Of a DNA stretch of 64,000 nt, positions 50,001 through 64,000 are shown piece after piece. How positions within the stretch are numbered: position 1 is the stretch's first letter; every line of letters begins with the position of its first letter. This DNA is from an uncultured Actinomycetes bacterium (GTDB lineage: Bacteria; Actinomycetota; Thermoleophilia; Gaiellales; Gaiellaceae), in contig CAVQWX010000006.1 in assembly GCA_963717765.1 (NCBI GenBank), positions 16,379-80,378 on the forward strand. The letters are read 5' to 3'. Under the pieces are notes generated by a model, which searched no databases, was not told the origin of the DNA, and saw only the letters and a list, made by a program, of their open reading frames with translations. The position numbers were made by a program, and so were the translations under genes.

Positions 50001-50319
50001 GCGCCTCTACACCGGCGACTTCCTCGAAGAGGACGTGTACGAGGATTGGGCGGTTTCCTTGCGCGAGGAAGCGCGCGGTGCCTACGTCGCCGTCGCCCGC
50101 GGGCTCGCCGAAACGAGCGCAGAGGCAGGTGAGCATGACGCCGCGGTGCGGTACCAGCTCCGCATCCTCGAGCGCGACCGCTACGACGAAAGAGCGCACC
50201 TCGGGCTGGTGACCGCGCTCGCCCGGGGCGGGCGCCACGGCGAGGCGCACCGGCAGTACCGGCGCTATGCCACTTTGATGGAGGAGATCGAAGTCGAGCC
50301 GGCCCCGGTTCCGGGCTAG
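47089..50319 (+). CDS. large STAND-type ATPase regulator: N-terminal P-loop NTPase + helical/TPR repeats + C-terminal OmpR-type wHTH and BTAD (SARP-like) domains
   Basis: P-loop VAGAGFGKSTLLAEW. C-terminus IEALGGLRVRCAGNTV..WRSKKARDLLKILV...LMEVLWPD, then YTGDFLEEDVYEDWAVSLREE...RYQLRILERDRYDERAHLGLV (BTAD). Confidence 0.8.
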   Translation: MKQDSTNGLASILRRPLLESRLDGTFGKRLTSIVAGAGFGKSTLLAEWAKDVSCAWHTAGSQDKRLPTFARGVAAAVRSCVPDLPAEITAVGGSSEHQLSAEAFAAGLCASLDELLGHDVVLVLDDVHELGRRGTAATRLVESLCRHAPPTLHLVVASRDELPFPIARLRGRGEVLELDASDLAFTQDEVAELIAITLGQGFQELARAVYAATAGWPAEVRMVVEALSSVPEGEHLSALESLRRPEGPLFSYVAEEVLEREPGDVVELLRRAAWLERVSPALCVAVGLPNAPQVVASLVSRGFLLPVESREETWFSLHALLREFLRDRRPLHIRELRTLYRRAARWFEDNGYLEDALQTAGQSGDSAELGRILRDHGARLLAGGAIEAVLEAAATLPPAARGSPLEQLIGEAHALKGDWAEALACYERAAGGPKLSPGLAWRIGRIYLDRGEPEEALEAFGRGELDGGDPADEAMLMAWIASAQLGRGELGKSRHNAARALKRATASGDPRAVAVASNVSMVLALRTDPSKAEEHFRRGLEAAESAGDVLQAIRIRSNHVAHLLQQGSFHDALAEIEPAVHGGEVAGAPSALAFALLKRGETRYYLGQLELAIADFEASRGIYERLGSSRAFGATMEIGEVYCERGDRALARAALEAAARGAAETNDAQVLIYARANLARVLAGDDDERAEELARSAVALARSSGHGIVFALLAWGWVALAHGEREKAAERARKAASAARERGDRAGLAESLELEALSDVHPARDRLEEALEIRRGLGNPLHEAATELALARVSSGPTGLPAADLAEHKLRALGMRLGPSRPAGLLRAVAPGAPVPLAIEALGGLRVRCAGNTVALGEWRSKKARDLLKILVARRGRPAPRDVLMEVLWPDEEVEALPNRLSVALTALRTGLDPERQFASGYFLVTDRHSVRLDLEHATVDVESFLAAASAGLRLLEQGSVEAATTLEAAERLYTGDFLEEDVYEDWAVSLREEARGAYVAVARGLAETSAEAGEHDAAVRYQLRILERDRYDERAHLGLVTALARGGRHGEAHRQYRRYATLMEEIEVEPAPVPG

Positions 50320-50364: not shown

Positions 50365-50395
50365 GATCGTTGACAAGTCGACCGAAGGAGTGGAC

Positions 50396-52366
50396 ATGAC
50401 ACCGATCACCTCGACACGGCTCCTGGCCGGAACGATCATGGCGATTGCGCTGGTGACGCTCGTGCTGGCAGCGGCGCCGGCGTGGGCGGTTGCCCCGCCG
50501 GTGACGGTTACGCTCGAGCCGGTACCGGCGGGGAGGACGACCGCAACGGCGGTCGAGCGGGTAGCCAACGGGCCTGGGAATGCCGACACCTGGATCCTCA
50601 ACGCCAACGTGTTGGTGCGAAACAACAGTGCAAGTGCGATCACATGGACGCGCTCGGAGCTCAGCACGGCGGGGCAGACGAAGATCCAGATCTTCAGCGT
50701 CCAGATTCCTGCAAACAGCTCGCGCCGCGTGCAGGTCTCGTCGTCGTTCACGGGGCCCTACCCGCTGGGCTCGGTCACCGGGAAGTTCAACTTCACTGGG
50801 TTCGACCAGGCGCTTCGGACCTTCACCTTGGCCGACATCAAGCATCAGACGCCCTCCGGCGCGTACTACCTCCCCTACAAGAAGTCCGACATGCCCGCGG
50901 GGACGTTCTGGACGAATTTCGAGACGCAGACCGACCAGAGCCACCACTACGGCGACCCGGCGCAGGCGTTCGCCTATGACCTCTTCGTCGTTCGCTGGAA
51001 CGGCAGCACGTGGACCCAGCTCAAGTCCGGGACGACGGGCTCGTCGAACAGCGACTTCCTCGCATACAACCTGCCGATCTACGCGCCAGACGACGGGACG
51101 ATCCTCGAGTGCCGCTACTCACTGCCGAACCTGACCCCGGGGACGAAGGACTCGAACCACCGCTTCGGCAACTCGATCTGGCTCCGCACCGGAAGCGGCG
51201 AGGTCATGGCCTTCGCCCACCTCAAACAGAACAGCATCCCAATCAGCCTGTGTCCGACGGAGTCAAAATCCAAGTTCGACAACGGCGGCACCGCGATTCA
51301 CGCCCAACCGGTCCAGGTCAAGGCCGGCCAGTTCATCGGGCGGGTCGGTAACTCCGGCAACACGAGCGGGCCGCACACGCACATCCAGCTCGATCGAAAC
51401 GCCCCCGCCGATGTCGACGACGCCAACTCGTTGTCGATGCCCGCGCTGCCGCTGGAGTTCCATCGCTTCCAGGCAACGGCGAACCGGAACAGCACGGTGG
51501 GGCCGTCACCCTCGCTGCAGACGATCGGCGACGCCTCTGCGCACGCGCTGCCGCCGTACGGACTGTTTCTGCCCAACTCACCGTGCTCCTGGCTGATCGT
51601 CGGGCCGGGCGCGCCCGAGGCTTCGGCGGCCAACGTGTCCACGACCTGCTTCCAGTCGCAGTTCAACGACCTCGTCCGCCAGGGCTACCTGCCGACGAAC
51701 CTGGACGGAATGAAGGTCGGCTCGGCCACGGCCTTCAACATCGTGGCGCGGCCGAACCGGCCGGCGACGGTCGCCTACGCGAACATGTCGGCCTCGACGT
51801 TCCAGTCCAACTTCGACTCCCTCAAGCAACAGGGCTACCGGCTTATCGACATCGACAACTACCTCGTTGGGTCGTCGGTCGTCTATGCGGGCGTGTGGGC
51901 CAAGCAGGGCGGGCCCGGCCAGGCCGTGTACCACGGCGCCTCACAGGCAACGCACAACAGCAACTTCCAGACGCTGACCGCACAGGGCTTCCGCCCGCAG
52001 GTGGTGTCGGCCACGAACTCGGCCAACGGGTTGATCTACAGCGCGATCTACGAGCTATCCGGCGCAGGCGGTTTCGTCACGGAGGTTACGCCCGAGGCGG
52101 ACTTCCAGAACCAATTCAACCTGCGCACGGGCCAGGGTCTCCGGCCGGTGGACGTCGATGGCCTCACGATCGGGACCACGGCGTACCTCTCGGTCACCTG
52201 GGACAACCTGGCGTCCACGAACTACGTGATGCACAACGCGATGACCTTCAGCGTGTGGGCGAGCACGTTCCAGCAGCAGAACGCGGCGGGCCGCCTGACC
52301 GATTCGTTGACCGGCTACCAAAGTGGAACGAATTCAAAGTACGCCGCTATTTGGCGCTTGCCGTAG
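50396..52366 (+). CDS. secreted M23 (LytM/lysostaphin-type) metallopeptidase with N-terminal beta-rich domain and 4-5 C-terminal ~48-aa tandem repeats (BTRD1-like)
   Basis: Start at ATG 50396 (RBS GAAGGAG; same leader as gene 63189). GQFIGRVGNSGNTSGPHTHIQLD is the M23 motif. The C-terminal repeats follow F.S.F..L..QGY.P..ID....G....Y..VW. Confidence 0.75.
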   Translation: MTPITSTRLLAGTIMAIALVTLVLAAAPAWAVAPPVTVTLEPVPAGRTTATAVERVANGPGNADTWILNANVLVRNNSASAITWTRSELSTAGQTKIQIFSVQIPANSSRRVQVSSSFTGPYPLGSVTGKFNFTGFDQALRTFTLADIKHQTPSGAYYLPYKKSDMPAGTFWTNFETQTDQSHHYGDPAQAFAYDLFVVRWNGSTWTQLKSGTTGSSNSDFLAYNLPIYAPDDGTILECRYSLPNLTPGTKDSNHRFGNSIWLRTGSGEVMAFAHLKQNSIPISLCPTESKSKFDNGGTAIHAQPVQVKAGQFIGRVGNSGNTSGPHTHIQLDRNAPADVDDANSLSMPALPLEFHRFQATANRNSTVGPSPSLQTIGDASAHALPPYGLFLPNSPCSWLIVGPGAPEASAANVSTTCFQSQFNDLVRQGYLPTNLDGMKVGSATAFNIVARPNRPATVAYANMSASTFQSNFDSLKQQGYRLIDIDNYLVGSSVVYAGVWAKQGGPGQAVYHGASQATHNSNFQTLTAQGFRPQVVSATNSANGLIYSAIYELSGAGGFVTEVTPEADFQNQFNLRTGQGLRPVDVDGLTIGTTAYLSVTWDNLASTNYVMHNAMTFSVWASTFQQQNAAGRLTDSLTGYQSGTNSKYAAIWRLP

Positions 52367-53561: not shown

Positions 53562-56375
53562 GTGCTTGAGTACCGGATTCTCGGCCGGCTCGAGGTGGTG
53601 CGCGACGGCGAGGACGTCGCGCCGACCGCGGCGAAGGTCCGGTCGCTCCTTGCCGCGCTCCTGCTTCGTGCGAACGACGTGGTGTCAATCGATCAGCTCG
53701 TCGACGCGCTCTGGGGCGAGCGGCCCCCCGAGTCGGCTGGGAAGCTCCTGCACGTGTACGTGTCGCAACTTCGCTCCGCTCTGGGAGCGGACGAGCTCGA
53801 GACGGTTCCACCGGGCTACCGCCTTCGGGTCGCACCTGAGGCCTTCGACGCTGTGCGGTTCGAGCGACTTCGCGAGGAGGCTCGTCGCGCTCTCGCGGAC
53901 GATAACCCCGAGCTCGCAAGCGGGCTCGCAGGGCGCGCCCTCGGGCTCTGGCGCGGCGAGCCGCTGGCCGACGTCGCACCTACAGGGGCCGCTCAGGTGG
54001 AAGCGGGACGACTCGCCGAGCTGAGGATCGAGTGCCGCCTCGACCGGCTCGACGCCGAGCTCGCGCTTGGACGTCACGGCGTTGTGCTGCCGGATCTGCA
54101 GCAGCTGTGCGCCGAGCATCCTCTCCGGGAGCGCGTGCGGGAGCGCCTGGCGCTCGCCCTCTACCGCGGCGGCCGGCAGGCCGAGGCGCTCGAGGTCATC
54201 GCGGAGGGTCGCCGGCTGCTCCGTGACGAGCTGGGGCTCGAGCCAGGGGAAGGGCTGCGCCGGCTCGAACGGGAGATCCTCAACCAGGACCCCACGTTGG
54301 GAAGCCCGGCCACCACTCCAGGGCCGAGCCCCAGGATCCCGGTGCCGAGCTCGCGGTTGGTGGGGCGCAGCAAGGAGCTCCAACAGCTCACCGCGCTGGT
54401 TACGCGCGAGGACGTTCGGATCGTCACGATCAGCGGGGCGGGCGGAAGCGGCAAGACCCGGGTCGCGCTCGAGCTGGCGAGGACGGCGGGATCGGCGTTC
54501 GCCAACGGTGCAGCGTTCGTCGAGCTCGCGTCCATCCGCGATCCGACAATCGTGATCGCCACGGTCGCGCAGGCGCTCGGTGTCCCGGAGACCGCCGACG
54601 AGGGCCACCCCGCGTCGCTCGCGCGCTGGCTGACCGGCCGTGAGCTCCTGCTCGTCGTCGACAACCTCGAACACGTCGTCGACGCTGCCCCCGAGCTGGC
54701 GCGTCTGGTGAACGAAGCTCCGCGGCTGACGGTGCTCGTCACGAGCCGTCGAGTCCTGCACGTGGGCGGTGAGTACGTGTTCCCGCTGCAGCCGCTGCCC
54801 GAGAACGACGCGGTGCGCTTCTTCGCCGACCGAGCTGAGGCACGCGATCCGACGGCGGACGGCGGGCGGGGCGACGAGGAGACGATCCGTGCGATCTGCC
54901 GTCGGCTCGACTGCCTGCCGCTCGCGCTCGAGATCGCCGCGGCGCGCACGGCGACCCTCACCCCGAGCCTCTTGCTGGCGCGTCTCACGGAGGAGGTGAC
55001 GGCACTCGGCACCGCCCCCCGGGATGCGCCGGCGCGCCAGCAGACGCTCGCCGACACGCTCGCCTGGAGCACAGACCTGCTGGCCGAGGACGAGCGGCGC
55101 ACGCTCGCGCGACTCTCCGTGTTCGCGGGCGGCTGCTCGCTCGAGGCAGCTGAAGCGGTCTGCGAGGCGACCCTCGAGACTGTCGGCGCGCTCGTGGACG
55201 CGAGCCTGCTGCAGCGAACCGTGTCGGCCGACACCGTCCGCCTGACCATGCTGGAGACGGTGCGCGAGCACGCTGCCGAGCTCCTCGAACGCGCGGGCGA
55301 CCGGGCCGCTGTCGAGAGCGCACACGCCGCGTACTTCGCCGCGCTGGCCGAGAGCGCAACGGCCAGCAGCCGGTCCACCACGCAGCCATTCGACTTGTTC
55401 GACCTCGAGCTCGACAACTACCGCGCGGCGTGGGACCGCGCCGACTCGACCGGTGACGACGAGACGGCGCTTCGGCTCGCGACGCCGCTCTACTACTACT
55501 GGTACTTGAGTGGCTACCTCCGCGAGGGACGTGACCGCATCCGCCGTCCGCTCGACCGCGGCGCGGGCGACGGACGGCTGCAGTCGCTGGCACTTGGCGC
55601 GCTGGCGGGCCTGACCTGGCTGCTCGGAGATCCCTGCGAAGCCGAGAAGTTGGCGAAGCGTGGCATCGCGGTCGGAACGGCAGCCGCCGCACTCGACGCC
55701 GTGATGCGCTGCCACACCGTGCTCGGCATCGTCGCACGCGACCGCGGCGAGCTGGCCTCGGCGGCCGCGCATATCGAGCGGAGCGGTGCGCTCGCGGAGG
55801 AGCTCGGGCTCGAGGAGGCTGTGACCACCGCCAACACGAATCTCGCCGACCTGGCGCTGATGGCCGGTGACTTCGGCCAGGCGCGGCGCAGATGGGAGCA
55901 CACGCTCGCCCAGAACCGCGAACGCGGGCTCCACACCACCGTCATCCACGCCACGTCGAAGATCGAAGACTCATTTGCGCGACTCGGGCTTGGAGCGGTC
56001 GCCTATTACGAGGGACAGCTCGAGGAGGCGGCTGACCATTTCTCGCTGGTCCTCGAGCTGTCGGAGCGAGCAGGGTTCCGCCAGAACGTCGCCCTCGCGC
56101 TCGTCGGGCTCGCGGCTGTCGCCGCCGCACGCGGAGAGCACGTCGAGGCAGCACTCAAGCTCGGGCGCGCATCAGATCTGATCGCCGCCACGGGAGGAGA
56201 TCTGACGGGTGCGGAGGCCGATCTGTACCAGCGGGCTGAAGCTTCGGCCCTGGCGGGCCTCGGCGCCGAGCGCCTGGCCGAGCTGCTCGAGGAGGGACGC
56301 AACGCGTCCGGCGTGACCCCGAGAGCTCGTAGACTCGGCCACATGCCGCCGCCGAACTCCCCCCTTCGCTCATGA
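53562..56375 (+). CDS. AfsR/SARP family regulator: N-terminal wHTH + BTAD, central NB-ARC P-loop ATPase, C-terminal TPR
   Basis: MLEYRILGRLEVVRDGEDV...VRSLLAALLLRAN..VSIDQLVDALW; BTAD (LWRGEPLADV...RLDAELALGRH); P-loop ISGAGGSGKTRVALE. Confidence 0.88.
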   Translation: MLEYRILGRLEVVRDGEDVAPTAAKVRSLLAALLLRANDVVSIDQLVDALWGERPPESAGKLLHVYVSQLRSALGADELETVPPGYRLRVAPEAFDAVRFERLREEARRALADDNPELASGLAGRALGLWRGEPLADVAPTGAAQVEAGRLAELRIECRLDRLDAELALGRHGVVLPDLQQLCAEHPLRERVRERLALALYRGGRQAEALEVIAEGRRLLRDELGLEPGEGLRRLEREILNQDPTLGSPATTPGPSPRIPVPSSRLVGRSKELQQLTALVTREDVRIVTISGAGGSGKTRVALELARTAGSAFANGAAFVELASIRDPTIVIATVAQALGVPETADEGHPASLARWLTGRELLLVVDNLEHVVDAAPELARLVNEAPRLTVLVTSRRVLHVGGEYVFPLQPLPENDAVRFFADRAEARDPTADGGRGDEETIRAICRRLDCLPLALEIAAARTATLTPSLLLARLTEEVTALGTAPRDAPARQQTLADTLAWSTDLLAEDERRTLARLSVFAGGCSLEAAEAVCEATLETVGALVDASLLQRTVSADTVRLTMLETVREHAAELLERAGDRAAVESAHAAYFAALAESATASSRSTTQPFDLFDLELDNYRAAWDRADSTGDDETALRLATPLYYYWYLSGYLREGRDRIRRPLDRGAGDGRLQSLALGALAGLTWLLGDPCEAEKLAKRGIAVGTAAAALDAVMRCHTVLGIVARDRGELASAAAHIERSGALAEELGLEEAVTTANTNLADLALMAGDFGQARRRWEHTLAQNRERGLHTTVIHATSKIEDSFARLGLGAVAYYEGQLEEAADHFSLVLELSERAGFRQNVALALVGLAAVAAARGEHVEAALKLGRASDLIAATGGDLTGAEADLYQRAEASALAGLGAERLAELLEEGRNASGVTPRARRLGHMPPPNSPLRS

Positions 56376-56377
56376 CC

Positions 56378-56686
56378 AGACCGAGGCGCTCGCGCTCGAT
56401 TTAGGCCCGGTCTACGGGCCGCTCGTCGTATCGCGGCCGAGACGGGGCCTCAGGACAAACGAGTGGACGTCGCTCGAGCGGCGCGATGTCGACGCCGCGG
56501 TGCAGGCGCTACCGCCGCGGCTGGACACGCCGCTGCTGTTCTCCTCGACGCGTGGCGGGCACATTGCGCTCGACAACTGGCGGATTCGCGAGTGGTATCC
56601 GGCGCTGGACGCAGCCGGGATCGAACGGCGCGGGCCCTATGCGCTCCGGCACACCTTCGCGACCGAGGCGCTCGCCTGCCGGTAGC
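56378..56686 (+). pseudogene. tyrosine recombinase (phage-type integrase) fragment, frameshifted and truncated
   Basis: ...RRGLRTNEWTSLERRDVD... and ...GPYALRHTFATEALA are catalytic-domain boxes. The upstream part is out of frame, and the H and Y boxes at the C-terminus are missing. Confidence 0.65.
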
Positions 56687-56689
56687 TAG

Positions 56690-57760
56690 TTGTCCTACCC
56701 ACGGACGTTGTGAACGCGGCTGATCGGTGGCCGGTCTCCGAGTGAGCTGTGCGGCCGTCGCCGGTTGTAGTAGTCGAGCCAGTGTGGCAGAGCGGCGTTG
56801 CGGTGTCGATGGGTGCGGTAGGCGAGACCGTAGGCCCACTCGCGGGCCATCGTCTGGTGGAAGCGTTCAACCTTGCCGTTCGTTCGCGGCCGATACGGCT
56901 GAGTGGTGAGGTGGCGGATGCCCTGGCGGGCGAGCAGCTCGGCCAGTGAGCGGTTGCGGACATAGCTGAAGCCGTTGTCGGTCATCAGCCGTTTGGCGAC
57001 GATCCCTCGCTCGGCGAAGAAGGCGAGCGCCCGCTCGACGAAGGCGGTCACCGTGGCTGCCTTGTCGTCATCGTGCAGCTCGACGTAGGCGATCCGCGAG
57101 TGGTCGTCGACGATCGCGTGCGCGTAGTCGTACCCGACCCTCGTCTCCGGGCGCATCCACTGTCGGCCGCGCTGGGAGCGGTCGCCGGTGAAGCGGTGTC
57201 CGGGCCGCAGGAAGCGCGCGTAGCGGCTGACGTCCATGTGCAGCAGGTCTCCCGGGCAGGGCCACTCGTAGCGGTTGGCCGGCTCCCGCGCGGGTGTGCG
57301 CGGCCGCGAGATCCCCGCACGCTTCAGCACCTTCCACACGGTCGAGTGGGCGAAGCCGGTCGCCCCGGCAACCAGGCGCGGCCCCCACCCGGTTCGGCGC
57401 CGGCACTCGCAGATCGTCTCGGCGAGCTCGCCCGAGAGCTGCCGGGGCGATCGGTGCGGCCTGCTCGAGCGATCGAACAGGCAGGCCAAGCTCGCCCGTG
57501 CCTCCTCGCCCGCCTCCAGCCAGCGGTGCCACCAGCGGTGTGCCGTCGCGGGCGAGACGCTGAACGCGGCCGCGGCCGCCTTCAGCGACATCCCCTCGCC
57601 GATCGCGCATACCAGCGCGTAGCGGCCAGCCAGTCCGAGCTTGGCGTTACGGTGAAACGACATCCGAGCCCTCCTTTGGGCGTAGGTCCGGGAAGACCCA
57701 CAGCCTCAAAGGAGGGCCGGATATCACCTCAACCGTTCACAACCTGTATAGGCGGGACAG
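56690..57760 (-). mobile_element. IS481-family insertion sequence (1071 bp) with imperfect terminal IRs and CTAG flanking duplication
   Basis: Left end TTGTCCTACCCACGGACGTTGTGAACG. The reverse complement of the right end is CTGTCCCGCCTATACAGGTTGTGAACG. CTAG lies directly outside both ends (56686..56689 and 57761..57764). Confidence 0.85.
56695..57663 (-). CDS. IS481 family transposase (HTH + rve integrase core, DDE)
   Basis: WHRWLEAGEEA, LLHMDV, DDHSRIAYVEL, TDNGFSY, YRPRTNGKVERFHQT and YNRRRPHSSLG. Confidence 0.9.
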   Translation of the reverse strand: MSFHRNAKLGLAGRYALVCAIGEGMSLKAAAAAFSVSPATAHRWWHRWLEAGEEARASLACLFDRSSRPHRSPRQLSGELAETICECRRRTGWGPRLVAGATGFAHSTVWKVLKRAGISRPRTPAREPANRYEWPCPGDLLHMDVSRYARFLRPGHRFTGDRSQRGRQWMRPETRVGYDYAHAIVDDHSRIAYVELHDDDKAATVTAFVERALAFFAERGIVAKRLMTDNGFSYVRNRSLAELLARQGIRHLTTQPYRPRTNGKVERFHQTMAREWAYGLAYRTHRHRNAALPHWLDYYNRRRPHSSLGDRPPISRVHNVRG

Positions 57761-57764
57761 CTAG

Positions 57765-58316
57765 TAGCCGTAAGCGCTGGCCCGGTGGTGCCGTTGCGCC
57801 ACACCTTGCGCAGGATCGTGTGCGGCGGGTAGTCGGGCGTAGGCTCGCTCGCTGCGAGAGGCTGTGGCTGCATGGGCTCGGTGAGTTGAAAGCCGCTGCG
57901 GTAGCGCTACGACGGCGTGTGGTCGCCGCTCCCTTGATGGGGACGCTCGTCGTTGTAGTGCTGCCTGAAGCCGTCGAGGAGCGCCTGGAGCTCGGTGAGG
58001 TCGCCGGGCACCTGCTGCTCTGCGAGCCACTCCTTGAGCGTCCGGTGGACACGCTCGAGCTGCCGAGCGTCTGGGGATGCGCGGGAGCCGAGGTCAGGTG
58101 CTTGACGCCGGCCTTGGCCAACTGGCGCTCGAAGGGAACAGTGACGTCGTGCCGACGGCCGGTGGAGCAGGCGTGGTTGTCTGAAGGCAGCTGCCGCGGG
58201 AGGCCATAGGCCGACGCCGCCTGGCGGAAGCAGCCCCAGGCCGCCTCCGCACTCGGACTGCGGCAGTGGCGCTCGCCGTCGACGACCTCGAGCTGGCCGA
58301 GTACCCGGTACTCCAA
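57765..58316 (-). pseudogene. older rve-type transposase remnant (frameshift plus internal stop), fused to the first ~16 codons of a destroyed SARP gene
   Basis: YGLPRQLPSDNHACSTGR...FERQLAKAGVKHLTSAPAHPQT, frameshift, then ERVHRTLKEWLAE...YNDERPHQGSGDHTPS-stop-RY.... The 5' end LEYRVLGQLEVVDGER (TTG start at 58316) looks like a SARP N-terminus. Confidence 0.65.
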
Positions 58317-58607
58317 CTGCCTGCCTCCTGACGTCTTCGCGAGAGCAGCGCTCGACCAAGCCTCGCTCGAGCAAGTTTAAGGCTGCACATGCACGCGGCA
58401 CCCGCAACCGCCCGTGTCCTTCGGCCGACGCTGGATTAGCGCTGTTCTGCGAATGAAGATCCAGGTTGTGGGCTGGAAGCAACCATACGAGGCGGCGCAG
58501 TAGACGTCTCCCATCCGTCACGTGGAGATAGGGCAGGTAGCCGGCTGATGCATGCGACGTCTCCTGCCGGACGGGAATGGCCGCCTGGCACTCGGTTTTG
58601 GGCGGCT

Positions 58608-58702: not shown

Positions 58703-59650
58703 ATGCACACTCGCACGAGATCGGCAATCCTCGTCGCAGCGCTCGCAGCCGCGAGCGTCCTGTTCATCGGCACGCCGGGGGCGATCGCAACCCAGGGTCA
58801 GTCAGTGCTGGCCGGAATGCAAAACACCGCGGCGAGCTCGACCATCGTCGTGAATGAGACCTATGTGCCGGCGTCCGAGTGCCACCCCAGCGACAGCGCG
58901 GTCGGCTTGGTCGCATGTGGCCTGCTCGGCGTTTGGGGCTTGAGTCCGTCTTCGTTCGGCGTCGGCATCGAGGGTGATGCCATAGGGTCGAACGGGATCG
59001 GCGTCGGGGGTTATGCCCACGGGTCGAACGGCGTCGGTGTCTGGGGCTTCTCAGCGAAGGGCGACGGGATCGAGGCGCTCACGCGAGCCACGAACAGGTC
59101 GGCGCTCTTTGCCCACCATGACGGGTCGGATCCCGGCTACGGGGTGTTCGCGCGCGCGAACGTCGGCACGGGCATCAGCGGAGGGAGCAGCTCCGGAGAC
59201 GGGATCGAAGGCGTCACCTCCACGCTCGACAAGTCTGCCGTGTGGGCGCATCACGACGGTTCGAGTTCGGGCTGGGGCGTCCATGCGAACGCGCAGGTCG
59301 GGACGGGCGTCCACGCGGAAGGCAGCCTCTACGGGCTGTACGGCGTGACGACGACCGCAAGCGGGACCGGCGTCCGCGCCGTCAACTCGGCGCCGGGCGG
59401 GACTGCCCTGCGGGTGGACGGCAAGGCGAGTTTCAGTCGCAGCGGCATCACCACGATCGCGGCGGGCACAGCATCGATGACGATCAGCCTTGCCGGAGTG
59501 TCCACGTCGAGCATGGTGGTCGCGACCGCGCAGCAGAACGGGGACGTGTTCGTGAAGGCGGCCGTCCCTGCGGGAGGGTCGTTCAAGCTCTTCCTGAGCG
59601 GCAACGCACCCGCGGGGGGTTTGAAGGTGGCGTACTTCGTCTTGAACTAA
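58703..59650 (+). CDS. secreted Gly-rich repeat (beta-helix-like) protein of unknown function
   Basis: RBS AGGAGGAGAC; signal ending AIATQGQ. Repeated G-x-G-V/I-x-G units (GVGIEGDAIGSNGIGVGGYAHGSNGVGVWGFS...), and a C-terminal beta domain ending KVAYFVLN. Confidence 0.75.
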   Translation: MHTRTRSAILVAALAAASVLFIGTPGAIATQGQSVLAGMQNTAASSTIVVNETYVPASECHPSDSAVGLVACGLLGVWGLSPSSFGVGIEGDAIGSNGIGVGGYAHGSNGVGVWGFSAKGDGIEALTRATNRSALFAHHDGSDPGYGVFARANVGTGISGGSSSGDGIEGVTSTLDKSAVWAHHDGSSSGWGVHANAQVGTGVHAEGSLYGLYGVTTTASGTGVRAVNSAPGGTALRVDGKASFSRSGITTIAAGTASMTISLAGVSTSSMVVATAQQNGDVFVKAAVPAGGSFKLFLSGNAPAGGLKVAYFVLN

Positions 59651-59665
59651 CCGATCGGAGGGGAA

Positions 59666-61336
59666 ATGAAGCACGCTTTGCATAGACAACCAGCAGCTTG
59701 GCTGGCGGGAGTGTGTACCTGTCTCGGCCTGGCGCTAATCGCCTCGCCGGCCTTTGCCGGCGACGCGCGCTCGAGCGCCGGAGCCCCGTGGCTGACGACC
59801 GGAAACTCGATCAACTCGAACGACTGGCTTGGAACGCTGAACAGCGCCCCGCTCACGTTCAAGACGAACGACGTCGAGCGCATGCGCATCACCAACGCGG
59901 GAAAGATCGGGATCGGCACGAGCTCACCCGCCGATCCCCTGTCGCTGAAGACGGCCACGAACAGCTACGGCTTGACGCAGACCGACGGGACGACCACGGT
60001 CGGCACCTGGGTTGGCGCCGGCAACAGCGGCACCTCGAGCGGCTGGCTCGGCACCAAGACGGATGACCCGCTGCAGTTCTTCACCGGTAACGGAGGCACG
60101 CAGATGACGCTCGCCACGAACGGGAACGTGGGTGTCGGCACGACGACGCCTCCGGACCGGCTCACTGTGAAGACCGCCTCCGGCAGTTACGGACTGACCC
60201 ACACGGACGGCTCGACGACCGTGGGGACGTATGTCGGCGGCGGCGGCGGCTGGCTCGGGACGAAGTCCTTCAGCCCGCTGCACTTCTTTACCGCCGACGG
60301 CGTGCCGTCGATGACGCTAACCACGAACGGGAACGTGGGCGTCGGTACGACGTCGCCCAGCGACAAGCTGAGCATCAGGACGGGCACGAACAGCTACGGC
60401 GTCACGCAGTCCGACGGGACGACTACGGTCGGGACCTGGGTCGGCGCCGGCACCAGCGGCATCCGGAGCGGCTGGCTCGGTACGAAGACGAACCACCCGC
60501 TGCGGCTGTTCACGTCAAACGGATCCGCGCCGCTGAACATCTACCCGAGCGGCGAGGTCGGGATCGGATCGTATTACCAGTACGGGGTCAAGCTCAGCGC
60601 TCGCAGTGGGACTACCGCCGATGCGGGGCGCTTCGAGAACACGACGTCCGGGCGGGCGATCACGGCGACGAGCGACAGCGGGGACGCGATCCTCGGTCGC
60701 TCGTATTCGACCAGCGGCTTCGGCGCGTCCGGGGGCGTCGGCGTCGACGGGGAAGCGCAGAACGGTGTCGGCGTCTACGGGTACGCCGCGCGGGGCGGTG
60801 TCGGAGTCTACGGAGCGGTGGGCAACAGCGGAGGATGGGCTGGGCTATTCCAGGGCGACATCGGGGTCAGCGGCGACGTTATTCAGACACAGGACAGTCC
60901 GCTCGACCCTGCAAACAAGACCCTTTCGTCCGCGCCGGTCGACGCGAACGAGCGGCTCAACGTGTTCAGCGGCAACATCGTCACAGGCCGCGCTGGGAAG
61001 GCTCTCGTCCGGCTGCCGGGCTACTTCTCGGCCGCCAACACGGATCCGCGCTACCAGCTGACGGTCGTAGGGCAGTTTGCGCAGGCGATCGTGGCACGCA
61101 AGATCGATCACAGCACGTTCGTGATCCGAACCAACAAACCGAAGGTCGAGGTGTCCTGGCAGGTCACCGCCGTCCGCAACGATCCCTGGTCCAAGGCACA
61201 CCCGTTCCGGGCCGTGCAGGACAAAGCAGTGGCCCAGCGAGGTAAGTACTACACGCCGTCGGCCTACGGAAAACCGGCGCGGGACAGCATCGCGCCATCT
61301 CCGAACGCCGATGCCTCGACGGGGACCCGACCGTGA
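59666..61336 (+). CDS. secreted tail-fibre-like repeat protein with conserved uncharacterised C-terminal domain
   Basis: Signal ending AFAG. Three ~72-aa modules contain NVG(I/V)GTT.P.D(K/R)L, as in phage tail-fibre/endosialidase-chaperone-associated repeats. Next comes a Gly-rich GVGVYG segment. The C-terminus is DPANKTL.SAPVDANERLNVFSGN...RYQLTVVGQFAQAIV...VSWQVTAVRNDPW. Confidence 0.8.
   Translation: MKHALHRQPAAWLAGVCTCLGLALIASPAFAGDARSSAGAPWLTTGNSINSNDWLGTLNSAPLTFKTNDVERMRITNAGKIGIGTSSPADPLSLKTATNSYGLTQTDGTTTVGTWVGAGNSGTSSGWLGTKTDDPLQFFTGNGGTQMTLATNGNVGVGTTTPPDRLTVKTASGSYGLTHTDGSTTVGTYVGGGGGWLGTKSFSPLHFFTADGVPSMTLTTNGNVGVGTTSPSDKLSIRTGTNSYGVTQSDGTTTVGTWVGAGTSGIRSGWLGTKTNHPLRLFTSNGSAPLNIYPSGEVGIGSYYQYGVKLSARSGTTADAGRFENTTSGRAITATSDSGDAILGRSYSTSGFGASGGVGVDGEAQNGVGVYGYAARGGVGVYGAVGNSGGWAGLFQGDIGVSGDVIQTQDSPLDPANKTLSSAPVDANERLNVFSGNIVTGRAGKALVRLPGYFSAANTDPRYQLTVVGQFAQAIVARKIDHSTFVIRTNKPKVEVSWQVTAVRNDPWSKAHPFRAVQDKAVAQRGKYYTPSAYGKPARDSIAPSPNADASTGTRP
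59894..60547 (+). repeat. three tandem ~216-nt coding modules inside gene 59666
   Basis: Modules begin NAGKIGIGTSSPADPLSLKTATNSYGLTQTDGTTTVGTW, NGNVGVGTTTPPDRLTVKTASGSYGLTHTDGSTTVGTY and NGNVGVGTTSPSDKLSIRTGTNSYGVTQSDGTTTVGTW. Confidence 0.8.
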
Positions 61337-61347
61337 GCTGACCGGAA

Positions 61348-61385
61348 CGCCGCGCGCGCCGCCGATCGCACCGGCGCGCGCGGCG
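61348..61385 (+). terminator. strong GC hairpin after gene 59666
   Basis: cgccgcgcgcgccg - 10-nt loop - cggcgcgcgcggcg is a perfect 14-bp stem, 12 nt after the stop. No U-tract (I-shaped type). Confidence 0.5.
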
Positions 61386-61486
61386 GACATTCGGTTACCA
61401 CTAGGGACTTCCCCGATGCGCCGGTCGCACCGGCGGCGTAGCGTGGTGGTCAAAGGGCGTGATTGGAGGAGAAATGAGACATCTCT

Positions 61487-62737
61487 TTGGAGAAAGGCGA
61501 AGCGCCACGTACTGGCTGGTCGCGCGCCTGCCTCGGCCTGCTGCTGGTCGCTACGCCGGCGCTCGCCGGCGGCGCCCGGACGAGCGCAGGCGGGCCGTGG
61601 CTGACGACCGGAAACTCGATCAACTCGAACGACTTCCTGGGCACGCTGAACAGCGCCCCGCTGACGCTGAAGACAAACGGCGCCGAGCGCATGCGCATCA
61701 CGAACGCGGGGAAGATCGGAATCGGCACGAGCTCACCCGCCGATCCCCTCTCGCTGCACACCGCCACGAACAGCTACGGCCTGACGCACACGGACGGCTC
61801 GACCACGCTCGGCACCTATGTCGGCGCCGGCAGAGGCTGGATCGGCACCAAGTCGAACAGTCCGCTCAGCTTCTTCACGAACAACGGCGGCCCGCTCATG
61901 ACGCTCCTGGCCTCTTCGGGGAACGTCGGGATCGGCACGACGCTGCCCAACGACAAGCTGGCCGTGCGGACGGCCACGAACAGCTACGGCGTCACCCAGT
62001 CCGACGGGACGACGACGGTGGGGACCTGGGTCGGCGCGGGCGGTAGCGGCATCCCCAGCGGCTGGCTCGGCACGAAGACGAACCACCCGTTGCGACTGTT
62101 CACGAGCAACGGATCCGCGCCGCTCAACATCTACCCGAGCGGGGAGGTCGGCGTCGGCTCGTACCTCCAGTACGGAGCCAAGCTCAGCGTACGCAGTGCG
62201 ACGGGCGCCGACGCCGGACGCTTCGACAACACGACTGCAGGGCGCGCGATCACGGCGACGAGCGCCGCTGGGGACGCGATCCTGGGTGTCTCCAGCAGAC
62301 GGATCGACCCCGCACACAAGACCCTCTTGTCCGCACCGGTCGACGCGAACGAGCGGCTCAACGTGTTCAGCGGCAACGTCGTCACCGGCCCCGGTGGCAA
62401 GGCTCTCGTGCCGCTGCCGGCCTACTACTCGGCCGCCAACAAAGATCCGCGCTACCAGCTGACCGTGGTCGGGCAGTTCGCGCAGGCGATCGTCGGACGC
62501 GAAATCGAGGGCAACACGTTCACGATCCGCACGAACAAGCCGAACGTGAAGGTGTCCTGGCAGGTGACCGCAAAGCGGAACGATCCCTGGTCGAAGGCGC
62601 ACCCGTTCCGGGCCGTGCAGAACAAGACCGCGGCTCAGCGAGGCAAGTACTACACGCCGGCGGCCTACGGGAAAACGGCGCGGGACAGCATCGCTCCACC
62701 TCCGAACGCAGTCGCGTCAGCTCCAAAGAGGCGGTGA
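61487..62737 (+). CDS. secreted tail-fibre-like repeat protein, shorter paralogue of 59666
   Basis: Same N-terminal, module and C-terminal domain sequences. It has two modules and lacks about 65 aa of the Gly-rich segment (junction ...AILGVSSRRIDPAHKTL...). The track start is TTG 61487. The ATG at 61474, with RBS GGAGGAG, is out of frame with the body. Confidence 0.75.
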   Translation: MEKGEAPRTGWSRACLGLLLVATPALAGGARTSAGGPWLTTGNSINSNDFLGTLNSAPLTLKTNGAERMRITNAGKIGIGTSSPADPLSLHTATNSYGLTHTDGSTTLGTYVGAGRGWIGTKSNSPLSFFTNNGGPLMTLLASSGNVGIGTTLPNDKLAVRTATNSYGVTQSDGTTTVGTWVGAGGSGIPSGWLGTKTNHPLRLFTSNGSAPLNIYPSGEVGVGSYLQYGAKLSVRSATGADAGRFDNTTAGRAITATSAAGDAILGVSSRRIDPAHKTLLSAPVDANERLNVFSGNVVTGPGGKALVPLPAYYSAANKDPRYQLTVVGQFAQAIVGREIEGNTFTIRTNKPNVKVSWQVTAKRNDPWSKAHPFRAVQNKTAAQRGKYYTPAAYGKTARDSIAPPPNAVASAPKRR

Positions 62738-62748
62738 CATTCAGCGCA

Positions 62749-62780
62749 CGCTGCGCGCCGCCCACCGGCGGTGCGCAGCG
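62749..62780 (+). terminator. GC hairpin after gene 61487
   Basis: cgctgcgcgccgcc-cacc-ggcggtgcgcagcg gives a 14-bp stem including one G-U pair, 12 nt after the stop. Confidence 0.45.
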
Positions 62781-62854
62781 GCCCCGCACTGGTCGGGCGC
62801 ATCCAAACAGGTAGGTGGATCAACAGCAAACCGCTCGGCCTGGCCGAGGTGCAA

Positions 62855-62938
62855 GGTGCCACGAACGAGCCCCCGTATCCGACGGAGTTTCGCCGAGAGG
62901 CGGTCCGGCTGGTCAAAGAAAGCGGCAGGTCGCAGCGG
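62855..62938 (+). pseudogene. short fragment of an IS3-family OrfA (HTH transposase) N-terminus
   Basis: PYPTEFRREAVRLVKESGRS resembles the OrfA pattern YS.EFK.EAVRLV.ESG.S. Only about 25 codons, abutting the regulator-remnant repeat. Confidence 0.4.
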
Positions 62939-63106
62939 GCACCTCGGGCTGGTGACCGCGCCGCTCGGGGCGGTCGCCACGGTGAGGCGCACCGGCAGTA
63001 CCGGCGCTATGCCACATTGATGGAGGAGATCGAGGTCGAGCCGGCTCCGGTTCCGTGCTAGCGCGGGATCTGCTTAAGGGTCGTTTAAGAGCGGGCCGGG
63101 AGGATG
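62939..63106 (+). repeat. direct repeat copy 2 (3' remnant of a second BTAD regulator gene plus leader)
   Basis: Encodes ...GEAHRQYRRYATLMEEIEVEPAPVPC-stop, followed by the same gcgcgggatctgcttaagggtcgtttaagagc leader as at 50319..50350. Confidence 0.9.
63073..63089 (+). promoter_or_regulatory. candidate activator box CTTAAG-N5-TTTAAG
   Basis: Identical to the box at 50331, 116 nt upstream of ATG 63189. Confidence 0.3.
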
Positions 63107-63188: not shown

Positions 63189-64000
63189 ATGATGAGGCGC
63201 CTGTTCCTACTCACCGCTCTCTGCCTCGGCACGGCCATTGCCGCGCCGTCCCCCGATGCCGCGCGAGCCTCGTCGGTCGAGATCACCAGCGGCCAGCTTC
63301 GCTACCTCGCCGACAAGGCCGAAGACGGCAGCGAGGCAAACCACGTCAACATCTGGCTCGACGACGGCACGATCTACGTGCAGGACTCGACCGGCATCGA
63401 CCACAACTTTTCGAACGTCTGTTGGTACGACACTTCGATACGAGTGCTCTGCTGGGCGCCGGCTGTCTCCTCGCTCGAGGTTTCGACGGGCGGCGGAAAC
63501 GACTACGTGGCCGTTTCGGAGACGATCTCCCTTCCCGCCAGCATCTACGGGGGCGGGGGCAAGGACACCATCTACGGCGGAGCCGGCAACGACCACATCG
63601 AGGGCGGGGACCCGACGGGGCACGAGTGGGGCCCTATCGCCGGGGACGACGTGATCTATGGGCGCGGCGGGAACGACTTCCTGCGCGGCACATGGGCTAC
63701 GAACGTCCTGCACGGCGGCAAGGGAAACGACACGCTCTGGAACGAGAACGGCGACGAGGTTCTCTACGGCGACGAGGGCGACGACACGCTCGAGAGCTCC
63801 TTCGACCAATGTCCGCAGCCGTCGTCCACCTCCAAGCACAGCTATTTGTCGGGCGGGCCCGGGACCGACACGGCGGCCTACAGCGCCTACGCTAACGGGA
63901 CGTGCGACTCGACCGACGGCGTCGTCGTAACGCTCGACGGCTACTTCAACGACGGGGTCGCCGGAGAGAACGACAACGTCCAGACGAACGTCGAGATCGT
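63189..64000 (+). CDS. secreted RTX-like calcium-binding repeat protein, 5' part (runs off window end)
   Basis: Not in the ORF track. My translation: MMRRLFLLTALCLGTAIAAPSPDAARA... with GGxGxD-type nonapeptides (YGGGGKDTIYGGAGNDHIEGG, YGRGGNDFLRG, HGGKGNDTLW, YGDEGDDTLE, GGPGTDTA). Open to position 64000. Its RBS/start GAAGGAGTGAACATG is shared with gene 50396. Confidence 0.75.
   Translation, partial: MMRRLFLLTALCLGTAIAAPSPDAARASSVEITSGQLRYLADKAEDGSEANHVNIWLDDGTIYVQDSTGIDHNFSNVCWYDTSIRVLCWAPAVSSLEVSTGGGNDYVAVSETISLPASIYGGGGKDTIYGGAGNDHIEGGDPTGHEWGPIAGDDVIYGRGGNDFLRGTWATNVLHGGKGNDTLWNENGDEVLYGDEGDDTLESSFDQCPQPSSTSKHSYLSGGPGTDTAAYSAYANGTCDSTDGVVVTLDGYFNDGVAGENDNVQTNVEI

Follow-up and report, generated by a model that had tools for sequence, protein, structure and literature searches.

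Tandem genes for probable secreted, MAT-like adhesive fibres with a phage tail-fibre-related C-terminal domain in an uncultured actinomycete

We analysed a 64,000-nucleotide stretch of contig CAVQWX010000006.1, from an uncultured Actinomycetes bacterium (the whole stretch is referred to below as the window). Three open reading frames (ORFs), here named g1, g2 and g3, follow one another on its forward strand. We read g2 and g3 as genes for secreted, probably trimeric, adhesive fibres that resemble the mosaic adhesive trimeric (MAT) fibres of Bdellovibrio. They would be non-phage, cellular proteins, not parts of a virion. We give this reading a probability of about 0.62. It draws on observations of the ORFs, their paralogy and homologies, their predicted fold, their distribution and non-phage context, and purifying selection. 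An earlier sequence-only reading had described the locus as an operon of three secreted repeat proteins with an uncharacterised C-terminal domain. Its observations were confirmed on checking and its interpretation was supported in part.

The shaft of g2 and g3 is homologous to MAT fibres

The g2 ORF lies at positions 59666-61336 (+ strand) and encodes a predicted exported fibre protein of 556 amino acids. Its paralogue g3 lies at 61487-62737 (+) and has 416 codons, starting from a TTG. The paralogy had been proposed earlier and was borne out: BLASTP aligned the two proteins with E = 3e-104, with 66% identity over the N-terminal part, rising to about 77% over the C-terminal domain, and the motifs quoted for both were present. 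In g2, a signal peptide (residues 1-31) is followed by a head (32-66), three shaft units (67-140, 141-209 and 210-283), a transition unit (284-345), a segment of GVxG repeats (346-405), the C-terminal domain (about 406-520) and a tail that runs to residue 556. Alignment and hidden Markov model (HMM) coordinates place the g2 shaft at 59864-60514 (+), with units of about 70-74 residues at 59864-60085, 60086-60292 and 60293-60514. Two units of about 70 residues are found in g3 (61673-61879 and 61883-62104). They are followed by a transition unit and, with no GVxG segment, by the C-terminal domain at 62297-62713. The shaft-unit motif of g2 is ERMRI..G.VGIGT..P...L...T...YG.T..DG.TT.GT.VG...GWLGTK...PL.FFT, and the g2 head reads like the second half of such a unit (DWLGTLNSAPLTFKT versus GWLGTKTDDPLQFFT). 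The description "beta-helix-like Gly-rich units" in the sequence-only reading lumps together two repeats, namely the shaft unit of about 70 residues and the GVxG unit of 10-12 residues.

The repeat region matches the tail-fibre families phrog_9942 and phrog_18345 in PHROGs, at about 5e-10. A search of PDB sequences with g2 matched 8ond (Bd2133) and 8oml (Bd1334) only. When a profile of five full shaft units (alignment A3) was used instead, the matches were 8ond (1.2e-9), 8oml (9.8e-7), 8ol4 (1.2e-3) and 8ojn (4.5e-3). All four are Bdellovibrio MAT fibres, and nothing else in the PDB matched. The motif aligned between the two groups is ERMRI..G.(V/L)G(I/L)GT..P...L. At the level of sequence, we regard homology between the shaft and MAT fibres as established. 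The earlier comparison of the repeat modules with phage tail fibres is upheld by the PHROG families and extended by the MAT fibre structures. The label "uncharacterised" has to be narrowed, since the shaft is akin to solved MAT fibres and the C-terminal domain to phage tail-fibre C-termini.

MAT fibres were described by Caulton et al. (2024; PMC10769870), with Bd2133 (PDB 8OND) and Bd1334 (8OML) among the examples. They carry a signal peptide and are surface-displayed, trimeric and beta-helical. Their C-terminal tips are swappable, being either an S74 chaperone/protease or another domain, and beta-sandwich tips are said to "substitute for the S74 chaperone" (PMC10769870). All 21 Bdellovibrio MATs have a common N-terminal domain of about 130 amino acids. 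The same paper already lists MAT-like relatives in other predator-associated bacteria; the C-terminal domain studied here is not among the MAT-like proteins of other predators in its supplement.

Like MAT fibres, g2 and g3 have a signal peptide, the same motif in the shaft repeats, several paralogues per genome, a modular C-terminal tip of a swappable kind (S74 or a non-S74 beta-sandwich) and a chromosomal, non-prophage site. Their own tip is a predicted non-S74 beta-sandwich (pLDDT 86). Because the shaft is homologous to that of trimeric MAT fibres, the g2 and g3 proteins probably also form trimers. Conversely, they are shorter (416-556 amino acids, compared with about 600-2000 for MATs) and their tip is a different domain that has no solved structure. 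Their host is a high-GC organism with no evidence of predation. Trimers and surface display, seen in MATs, are only predicted for g2 and g3. The N-terminal domain of about 130 amino acids is not found: only about 35 residues separate the cleavage site from the first full unit. Hence, g2 and g3 are not MAT members in the strict Bdellovibrio sense. In our reading they would work like MATs, and have their shaft, yet fall outside the strict family. The pairing of this shaft with this tip is a minority architecture, since only 2 of the 80 fibre loci surveyed below have a g2-type shaft unit.

Divergence of g3 from g2

Relative to g2, g3 lacks 5 amino acids, one shaft module of 68 amino acids and a stretch of 63 amino acids that takes in the GVxG segment together with the opening strands of the C-terminal domain. 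The first g3 unit combines parts of g2 units 1 and 2, a chimera suggestive of in-register recombination. Thus, g3 would be a shortened tandem duplicate that arose by in-register loss of one shaft module and the GVxG segment.

The start of g3 has also changed. An alignment of the g2 and g3 5' ends at the DNA level identifies a Shine-Dalgarno sequence, GGAGGA, at 61465-61470 (+) and the ancestral ATG at 61474-61476 (+). Compared with g2, one extra base is present directly past codon 3, and because of this 1-nucleotide insertion the ATG at 61474 is out of frame. Deleting the extra base gives MRHSLEKGEAPR..., in register with MKHALHRQPAAW... of g2. The ATG is 3-4 nucleotides from GGAGGA; the TTG at 61487, which is the first in-frame start, is 16 nucleotides from it. 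Both the loss of sequence and the out-of-frame ATG had been noticed earlier. By the Nei-Gojobori method, g2 and g3 have an overall dN/dS of 0.34 (dS 0.44), with values of 0.24-0.44 per region. We therefore conclude that purifying selection has acted on both copies during most of the period after duplication. The lesion at the g3 start would be recent, tolerated or a sequencing error. The sequence-only reading took g3 as a case of "diversification or decay". The loss of modules is confirmed, but decay over the history of the gene is not supported by the dN/dS.

Alternatively, g3 could be a pseudogene in the making, with initiation at the out-of-frame ATG and little or no full-length protein produced. 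The inserted base fits this explanation, as does the spacing of the two starts from the Shine-Dalgarno sequence. So does the absence of the GVxG segment, the first domain strands and some otherwise invariant residues (D-x-P; N to H). Set against this, the frame is uninterrupted over 416 codons at a dN/dS of 0.34 and a dS of 0.44 from g2, a plausible signal peptide still follows the TTG, and the extra base is possibly an assembly error. We consider a nascent pseudogene doubtful.

Export features of the three proteins

Signal peptides were assigned by reading the sequences directly. Each of g1, g2 and g3 has a positively charged start, a hydrophobic core of 12-15 residues (Kyte-Doolittle 2.2-2.7) and an AxA site. 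The cleavage sites read AIA/TQG in g1, AFA/GD in g2 and ALA/GG in g3, where the slash marks the cut. The signal peptides are kept among relatives of both families, that of g1 and that of the fibres. The proteins had been called secreted before, and these features agree with that; they point to export of all three by the Sec pathway.

No second hydrophobic segment occurs in g1, g2 or g3. The three proteins contain no LPXTG motif; g3 has LASSG only, which is located mid-protein and not at the C-terminus. Searches of Pfam and NCBIfam gave no match in any of the three, and hence none to an SLH or S-layer domain. There was no Pfam match to a YadA-type membrane anchor, and the C-terminus is a predicted soluble beta-sandwich with a polar tail and no hydrophobic segment. 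The anti-phage defence models of PADLOC identified no family at E <= 0.01. An autotransporter anchor, LPXTG anchoring, an S-layer protein and a defence system were thus each considered and rejected, there being no support for any. A type IX secretion system (T9SS) sorting domain was rejected by reasoning only: there is no Pfam match, and the C-terminal domain of g2 and g3 is present in phyla not known for T9SS.

The same features bear on whether the proteins are specific adhesins at all. They might instead be structural fibres of a matrix or coat, either S-layer-like or forming a biofilm scaffold. Export signals in proteins that have no anchor motif or N-terminal docking domain would suit such a role, as would the Gly/Ser/Thr-rich composition and the multiple tandem copies per genome in other lineages. 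However, there is no SLH, S-layer or other Pfam/NCBIfam match, and the only solved relatives of the shaft are adhesive fibres. We regard a matrix or coat function as improbable.

The C-terminal domain defines a large unannotated family

The C-terminal domain of g2 and its tail are encoded at 60854-61315 (+), and include the motifs RYQLTVVGQFAQAIV and VSWQVTAVRND and the tail RGKYY.P..YG.P. Residues 400-556 of g2 were used for an exhaustive phmmer search of 1.84 billion cluster representatives (50% identity), which returned 9,517 relatives at E <= 1e-3, 8,128 at <= 1e-10 and 1,277 at <= 1e-30. The sequence-only reading had recognised the domain from many unannotated bacterial proteins. This is amply supported, as there are 9,517 such representatives and the domain has no Pfam or NCBIfam model. 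Identity to the relatives is typically 50-55% and the proteins are 160-1,450 amino acids long. In the proteins that were fetched, the domain ends a median of 15 residues from the protein end and is single-copy in all except one. Most family members have a GVxG segment before the domain, with a median of 6 motifs.

Annotation of the family is sparse. None of 120 listed short carriers has a precomputed Pfam family. Among the 65 longest representatives, 2 have collagen repeats and the others are essentially without annotation. The carriers are labelled "hypothetical protein" at source or, wrongly, "trimeric autotransporter adhesin" (JGI, some relatives). A profile of the domain gave no match to PDB sequences. 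The domain consensus reads FKIDHPLDPANKYL.HSFVESPDMMNVYNGNVTTD..G.ATV.LP.YFEALN.DFRYQLTV.GQFAQAIVA.KI..N.F.IRT.KPNVEVSWQVTG.R.D and is followed by a conserved tail, ERG.YL.PE.FG.P. In domain numbering, the invariant polar residues are R63, Y64, Q65, T67, S98, T102, R105, D107 and K121.

Two further features were seen in relatives. Many long carriers of the domain (alignment A5) have an N-terminal motif in common, WL...........R..L..VPYAL.A..A, which g2 and g3 lack and which may be a conserved N-terminal, perhaps anchoring, module of the wider family. PF26696 occurs on shaft relatives P0009, P0011, P0014, P0021 and others, in a different region, and is not mentioned in the literature searched. 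The C-terminal domain is not PF26696, since 13 of 16 PF26696 carriers are without it.

AlphaFold2 (AF2) was used to build monomer models, from an alignment of 85 sequences for the g2 domain. The g2 domain is predicted to be an all-beta sandwich with a mean pLDDT of 86 and a core of 94-98. Foldseek gave no PDB match to it below E = 0.02. The top matches, all weak, fall in the C-terminal regions of phage depolymerase, tailspike and R-pyocin fibres; the best superposition is with the Pam1 tailspike 7EEA (76 residues, 2.6 Å), and 4ru5 also superposes. Against BFVD there were 21 matches with E < 1e-3, all of them to phage tail, fibre or uncharacterised proteins. The top match was the minor tail protein of Arthrobacter phage Mufasa8 (6.6e-9), and a P-SSM2 tail-fibre-like protein was also present. 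Comparison with tail fibres and tailspikes by AlphaFold and Foldseek, and a profile search of the C-terminal region, had both been proposed as checks on the sequence-only reading. The first yields a beta-sandwich that best, if weakly, matches tailspike and pyocin-fibre C-termini; the second yields a large family with no sequence match in the PDB.

The C-termini of tailspikes and pyocin fibres (7EEA, phi297 4RU5, Sf6 2VBK and R2 6CT8/6CL6) give the best superpositions for the g2 domain and also for the C-terminal module of g1. With 7EEA, 75-76 residues of either superpose at 2.6-3.0 Å. Conversely, the Foldseek E-values are 0.009-0.1, there is no sequence similarity, and the enzymatic beta-helices of tailspikes are absent from g1, g2 and g3.

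A comparison with fibres and tailspikes that end in the intramolecular chaperone Peptidase_S74 (PF13884) is also informative. S74 terminates relatives that have a shaft of this kind, and the g2/g3 C-terminal domain occupies the same position. In the proteins that were fetched, the domain and S74 never occur together, and on related shafts they are mutually exclusive. The shared position and mutual exclusivity suggest an equivalent capping role. Unlike S74 fibres, g2 and g3 give no PF13884 match at E <= 1 (the relative P0075 gives 1.7e-17), have no SDxxxK motif and offer no evidence of self-cleavage.

A capping role could be most of the story. The domain would then be mainly a folding and trimerisation cap, a non-cleaved substitute for S74, and any ligand specificity would reside in the shaft or the GVxG segment. 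Its very high conservation across phyla argues for this, as does its strictly C-terminal, S74-exclusive position on related shafts. The best PDB superpositions are with tailspike C-terminal sandwiches (7eea, 76 columns, 2.6 Å; 4ru5), and MAT beta-sandwich tips are described as replacing the S74 chaperone (PMC10769870). However, the invariant polar residues could equally make a binding site. The C-terminal region of R-pyocin fibres is their receptor-binding part, and such fibres are among the Foldseek matches. We view a mainly capping role as a credible competitor, somewhat below an even chance.

The domain is related to phage tail fibres but is overwhelmingly cellular

When the g2 copy of the domain was compared with 50,697 phage genomes using tblastn, there was no match. 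The same genomes were searched with a consensus-like member of the family, P0269, and 18 records were found, several cyanophages among them. The null result with the g2 copy is thus a limit of sensitivity, and the proposition that the domain is absent from phages was rejected. P0269 is 38% identical to the gp19 proteins of phages Mufasa8 and Sonali (7e-11) and 31% identical to the tail-fibre proteins of Prochlorococcus phage P-SSM2 and of P-SSM5 (2e-7). In Mufasa8 gp19, a protein of 352 amino acids that is the third minor tail protein past the tape measure, the domain is at about 189-299. It forms the extreme C-terminus of the P-SSM2 fibre PSSM2_295 (1,170 amino acids).

These phage proteins resemble g2 and g3 in the sequence homology of the domain, in the Foldseek match to Mufasa8 (6.6e-9) and in the C-terminal placement of the domain, which lies in the last third of gp19 and at the very end of the P-SSM2 fibre. 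They differ in having no signal peptide context and in being encoded in tail modules, beside tape-measure or tail-fibre genes. Furthermore, the g2 copy is more divergent, with no tblastn match, and the domain is rare in phages and abundant in cells.

For the scan of cellular genomes, one genome per GTDB species was used. At least 599 stretches carry the domain, 591 of which were confirmed. Only 5 loci were found in IMG/VR. Two of these five (L092 and L093) are on contigs labelled GVMAG, binned as giant-virus genomes from metagenomes, and could represent either mis-binned cellular DNA or a real viral occurrence. Given at least 599 cellular loci, as against 5 in IMG/VR and 18 of 50,697 phage genomes, the domain is overwhelmingly cellular, although by sequence it is truly related to phage tail-fibre C-termini. 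The best 80 of the at least 599 loci belong to Acidobacteriota, Chitinophagaceae, other Bacteroidota, Ignavibacteria, Chloroflexota, Abditibacteria, Zixibacteria, Chthoniobacterales and others.

Two domain genes lie within 6 kb of each other at 13 of the 80 cellular loci (L010, L036, L047, L053, L060, L076, L078, L081 and others), nearly all on the same strand. Hence, tandem paralogues such as g2 and g3 are usual. Several metagenome-assembled genomes hold copies on separate contigs (for example, L005/L081 and L050/L061). Taken together, the paired and the separate copies indicate multi-copy families within genomes.

Neighbouring genes were surveyed by crude ORF calling, in genomes that are partly related to each other. 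No phage structural family was found among the 148 nearest flanking ORFs at 40 cellular loci. The genes around close homologues of g2 are likewise ordinary cellular ones and include no phage structural family. TPR proteins are the sole recurrent neighbours (12 of 148 flanking ORFs), the rest having assorted cellular functions. We rejected a conserved neighbour gene, as TPR proteins account for those 12 only and their recurrence probably reflects shared ancestry of related genomes. T9SS sorting domains are present on 5 flanking ORFs (flanks of L004-L052).

These data bear on whether the fibre genes are degraded leftovers of a prophage or tailocin, stranded among insertion sequences (ISs) and without a present cellular role. 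The shaft and the tip are both homologous to phage tail-fibre proteins (PHROG, BFVD, Mufasa8 gp19 and the P-SSM2 fibre). There is mobile-element debris upstream (an IS481 element and an rve fragment), and the start of g3 is damaged. However, virion fibres lack signal peptides, and g1, g2 and g3 all have them. Neither the tail-module setting nor the absence of an export signal expected of a phage virion fibre was found for g1, g2 or g3. The ORFs scanned, over about 38-64 kb of the window, include no capsid, tape-measure, baseplate or lysis gene. The dN/dS of 0.34, the preponderance of cellular loci and the non-phage flanking genes in other genomes also argue against leftovers. We judge this explanation very unlikely.

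Proposed mechanism and significance

We favour cellular MAT-like fibres, and propose the following mechanism. Cutting of the signal peptide would leave a mature g2 or g3 chain that opens directly with MAT-like shaft repeats and ends in a beta-sandwich of about 115 amino acids, homologous to some phage tail-fibre C-termini. Three chains would probably associate into one fibre. The sandwich, preceded by the GVxG segment in g2, may be an independently folding cap that sets the register of the trimer and takes the place held by the S74 chaperone on sister fibres. The cap may also present a distal, probably glycan-binding, surface, in which case the fibres would act as extracellular or surface adhesins, or as recognition fibres. 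Built on a similar plan, g1 would be a third and shorter exported protein that combines GVxG repeats with a different, tailspike-like C-terminal sandwich.

Several points weigh against this interpretation. The N-terminal domain of about 130 amino acids that is thought to hold MATs on the cell is missing from g2 and g3. The PDB matches of the g2 domain in Foldseek all lie above E = 0.02, and the tailspike sandwiches among them are mostly assembly domains. The domain keeps 50-58% identity across phyla, which is unusually high for a receptor-binding tip and better suits a structural cap, or the binding of a universal ligand, than a diversifying receptor-binding site. Lastly, g3 is without the first domain strands and some otherwise invariant residues, its start is damaged, and it may be poorly made.

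Adhesins that are encoded by cells, resemble phage fibres and have swappable tips are already known from the 2024 work on Bdellovibrio (PMC10769870). So far, cell-made fibres of this phage-tail-fibre-like kind have been characterised only in that predator. New here are the large unannotated C-terminal family tied to phage tail-fibre C-termini and its mutual exclusivity with S74. Also new are the occurrence of the domain, in a high-GC bacterium, at the end of a MAT-type shaft that has no MAT N-terminal domain, and a second family, that of g1, of similar design. The locus and the roughly 9,500 clusters suggest that the design is common among soil and water bacteria of many phyla.

A broader proposal, which we consider possible rather than probable, is that the domain marks a very large and unrecognised class of Sec-exported, phage-tail-fibre-derived fibres in free-living bacteria of many phyla. 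These would include Acidobacteriota, Chitinophagaceae, Ignavibacteria, Chloroflexota and the present high-GC organism. Cells would have adopted a domain that is rare in phages as a trimerising cap that is independent of S74 and binds one conserved ligand, with g1 representing a second, independent family of the same design. If so, non-predatory bacteria would gain phage-like recognition of other cells or polymers. The domain has no Pfam model, solved structure or named function. Its conservation is high enough for a single structure and a single binding study to annotate thousands of "hypothetical" proteins. Such work could address whether conserved caps are assembly devices or ligand-binding tips, for which g2 and g3 provide a small natural experiment, a full-length copy beside a shortened one. 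The locus is not a new type of system; it is a useful lead for annotation and structural work.

The g1 protein and its GVxG repeats

The g1 ORF (58703-59650, +) encodes a predicted exported protein of 315 amino acids. It comprises a signal peptide (residues 1-29, ...GAIA/TQG), about 11 GVxG units (residues about 75-232) and a C-terminal beta-sandwich of about 85 amino acids, matched by the HMM at 59390-59647. The G[VI]x[GA] motif occurs 11 times, repeating every 10-12 residues, and a segment of about 45 amino acids is duplicated internally. The family of g1 has 83 matches, all "hypothetical" and mostly from soil metagenomes. Its members share a signal peptide, a mature start TQGQPVLAG..NT and GVxG units in varying number. 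The C-terminal module is near-invariant and ends exactly in ...GGLKVAYFVLN.

AF2 modelled the last 70 or so residues of g1 as a confident sandwich (pLDDT 89-97) and the Gly-rich part as coil. Coil in the Gly-rich parts of monomer models is as expected for intertwined trimers. The best PDB superposition of the g1 module was with the Pam1 tailspike C-terminus (75 residues, 2.9 Å, E = 9e-3). That the C-terminal modules of g1 and g2 are homologous was rejected at the sequence level, where hhalign (alignment A2 versus A1) gave a probability of 8%. The two modules have in common only the weak structural match to 7EEA, and similarity between g1 and g2 is confined to the style of the GVxG repeats. This agrees with the earlier statement that g1 shares that style and has a C-terminal beta module of its own.

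Three genomic contexts of g1 homologues were examined: one is beside an S74-ended fibre gene, one is beside an integrase gene and one has no fibre neighbour. No g1-like neighbour was found at the 80 fibre loci. With no regular linkage in either set, g1 was rejected as an obligatory partner of fibre genes. Separately, an identical g1, with the start of the next gene, was found on a 1,657-bp contig (L088) in Logan run ERR11718635. The run is an independent public one, and the same or a very close organism is therefore present in that sample.

Organisation of the locus

The three ORFs and the 15-nucleotide gap between g1 and g2 were found where the sequence-only reading had placed them. The gap (59651-59665, +) carries the ribosome-binding site of g2, GGAGGGG, and is without structure. 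A hairpin 3' of g2 (61348-61385, +) has a perfect 14-bp GC stem and a 10-nucleotide loop, and lies within a longer helix at 61337-61399. The hairpin 3' of g3 (62749-62780, +) also has a perfect 14-bp GC stem, with a 4-nucleotide loop. Both hairpins had been noted before. Their folding energies are -41.2 kcal/mol (z about -3.9) for g2 and -40.8 kcal/mol (z -3.1) for g3, relative to shuffled sequences. Neither has a U-tract, and hence neither is called by a simple terminator scan. The hairpin 3' of g2 is likely a terminator without a U-tract, or an attenuator.

The term "operon of three" holds for part of the locus. Judged by spacing, g1 is probably co-transcribed with g2. Conversely, g3 is separated from g2 by the strong hairpin and a 150-nucleotide spacer, and at other loci g1-like genes are not linked to fibre genes.

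Genomic surroundings

The neighbours of the fibre genes are regulators, surface or secreted proteins and IS elements. Upstream are an Invasin_D3/Big_1/PASTA protein (43554-45530), a TPR-BTAD protein of 1076 amino acids with BTAD unusually placed at the C-terminus (47089-50319), a Peptidase_M23/BTRD1-repeat protein (50390-52366) and an intact SARP/AfsR-type regulator of 937 amino acids (53562-56375). An intact IS481-family element follows at 56686-57764 (- strand). It has imperfect terminal inverted repeats of 31 nucleotides that end in CTAG, and a transposase gene (56695-57663, -) with transposase Pfam matches. Its closest plasmid-borne relatives are only about 43% identical.

Next to this element is a frame-broken rve/rve_3 transposase fragment (57729-58521, -). 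Sixteen codons that resemble a SARP N-terminus, LEYRVLGQLEVVDGER (58269-58316, -), form the start of ORF 57729-58316 and are joined to the transposase fragment. Their counterpart in the intact SARP at 53562, with which they were compared, reads VLEYRILGRLEVVRDGE. The region 57729-58521 has the appearance of a regulator gene that was truncated and joined to IS debris, with nested insertions, and is possibly the remnant of a divergent regulator. The sequence-only reading held that a SARP gene had been destroyed by transposon insertion and had presumably controlled the operon. The SARP-like codons at the transposase fragment agree with the first claim, but the remnant consists of those 16 codons only. 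Control of the operon is conjecture, and an intact SARP-type gene is present at 53562-56375.

Two further segments were picked out by eye and are unverified, with no Pfam match at E <= 0.01: 56500-56685 (+), which is like a tyrosine-recombinase C-terminus (..LRHTFATEAL..), and 62771-63061 (+), which is like an IS3 OrfA (..YPTEFRREAVRLV..). Downstream of g3, an RTX protein with a signal peptide and calcium-binding nonapeptide repeats (HemolysinCabind, 7.7e-17) is encoded at 63189-64000 (+) and runs off the end of the window.

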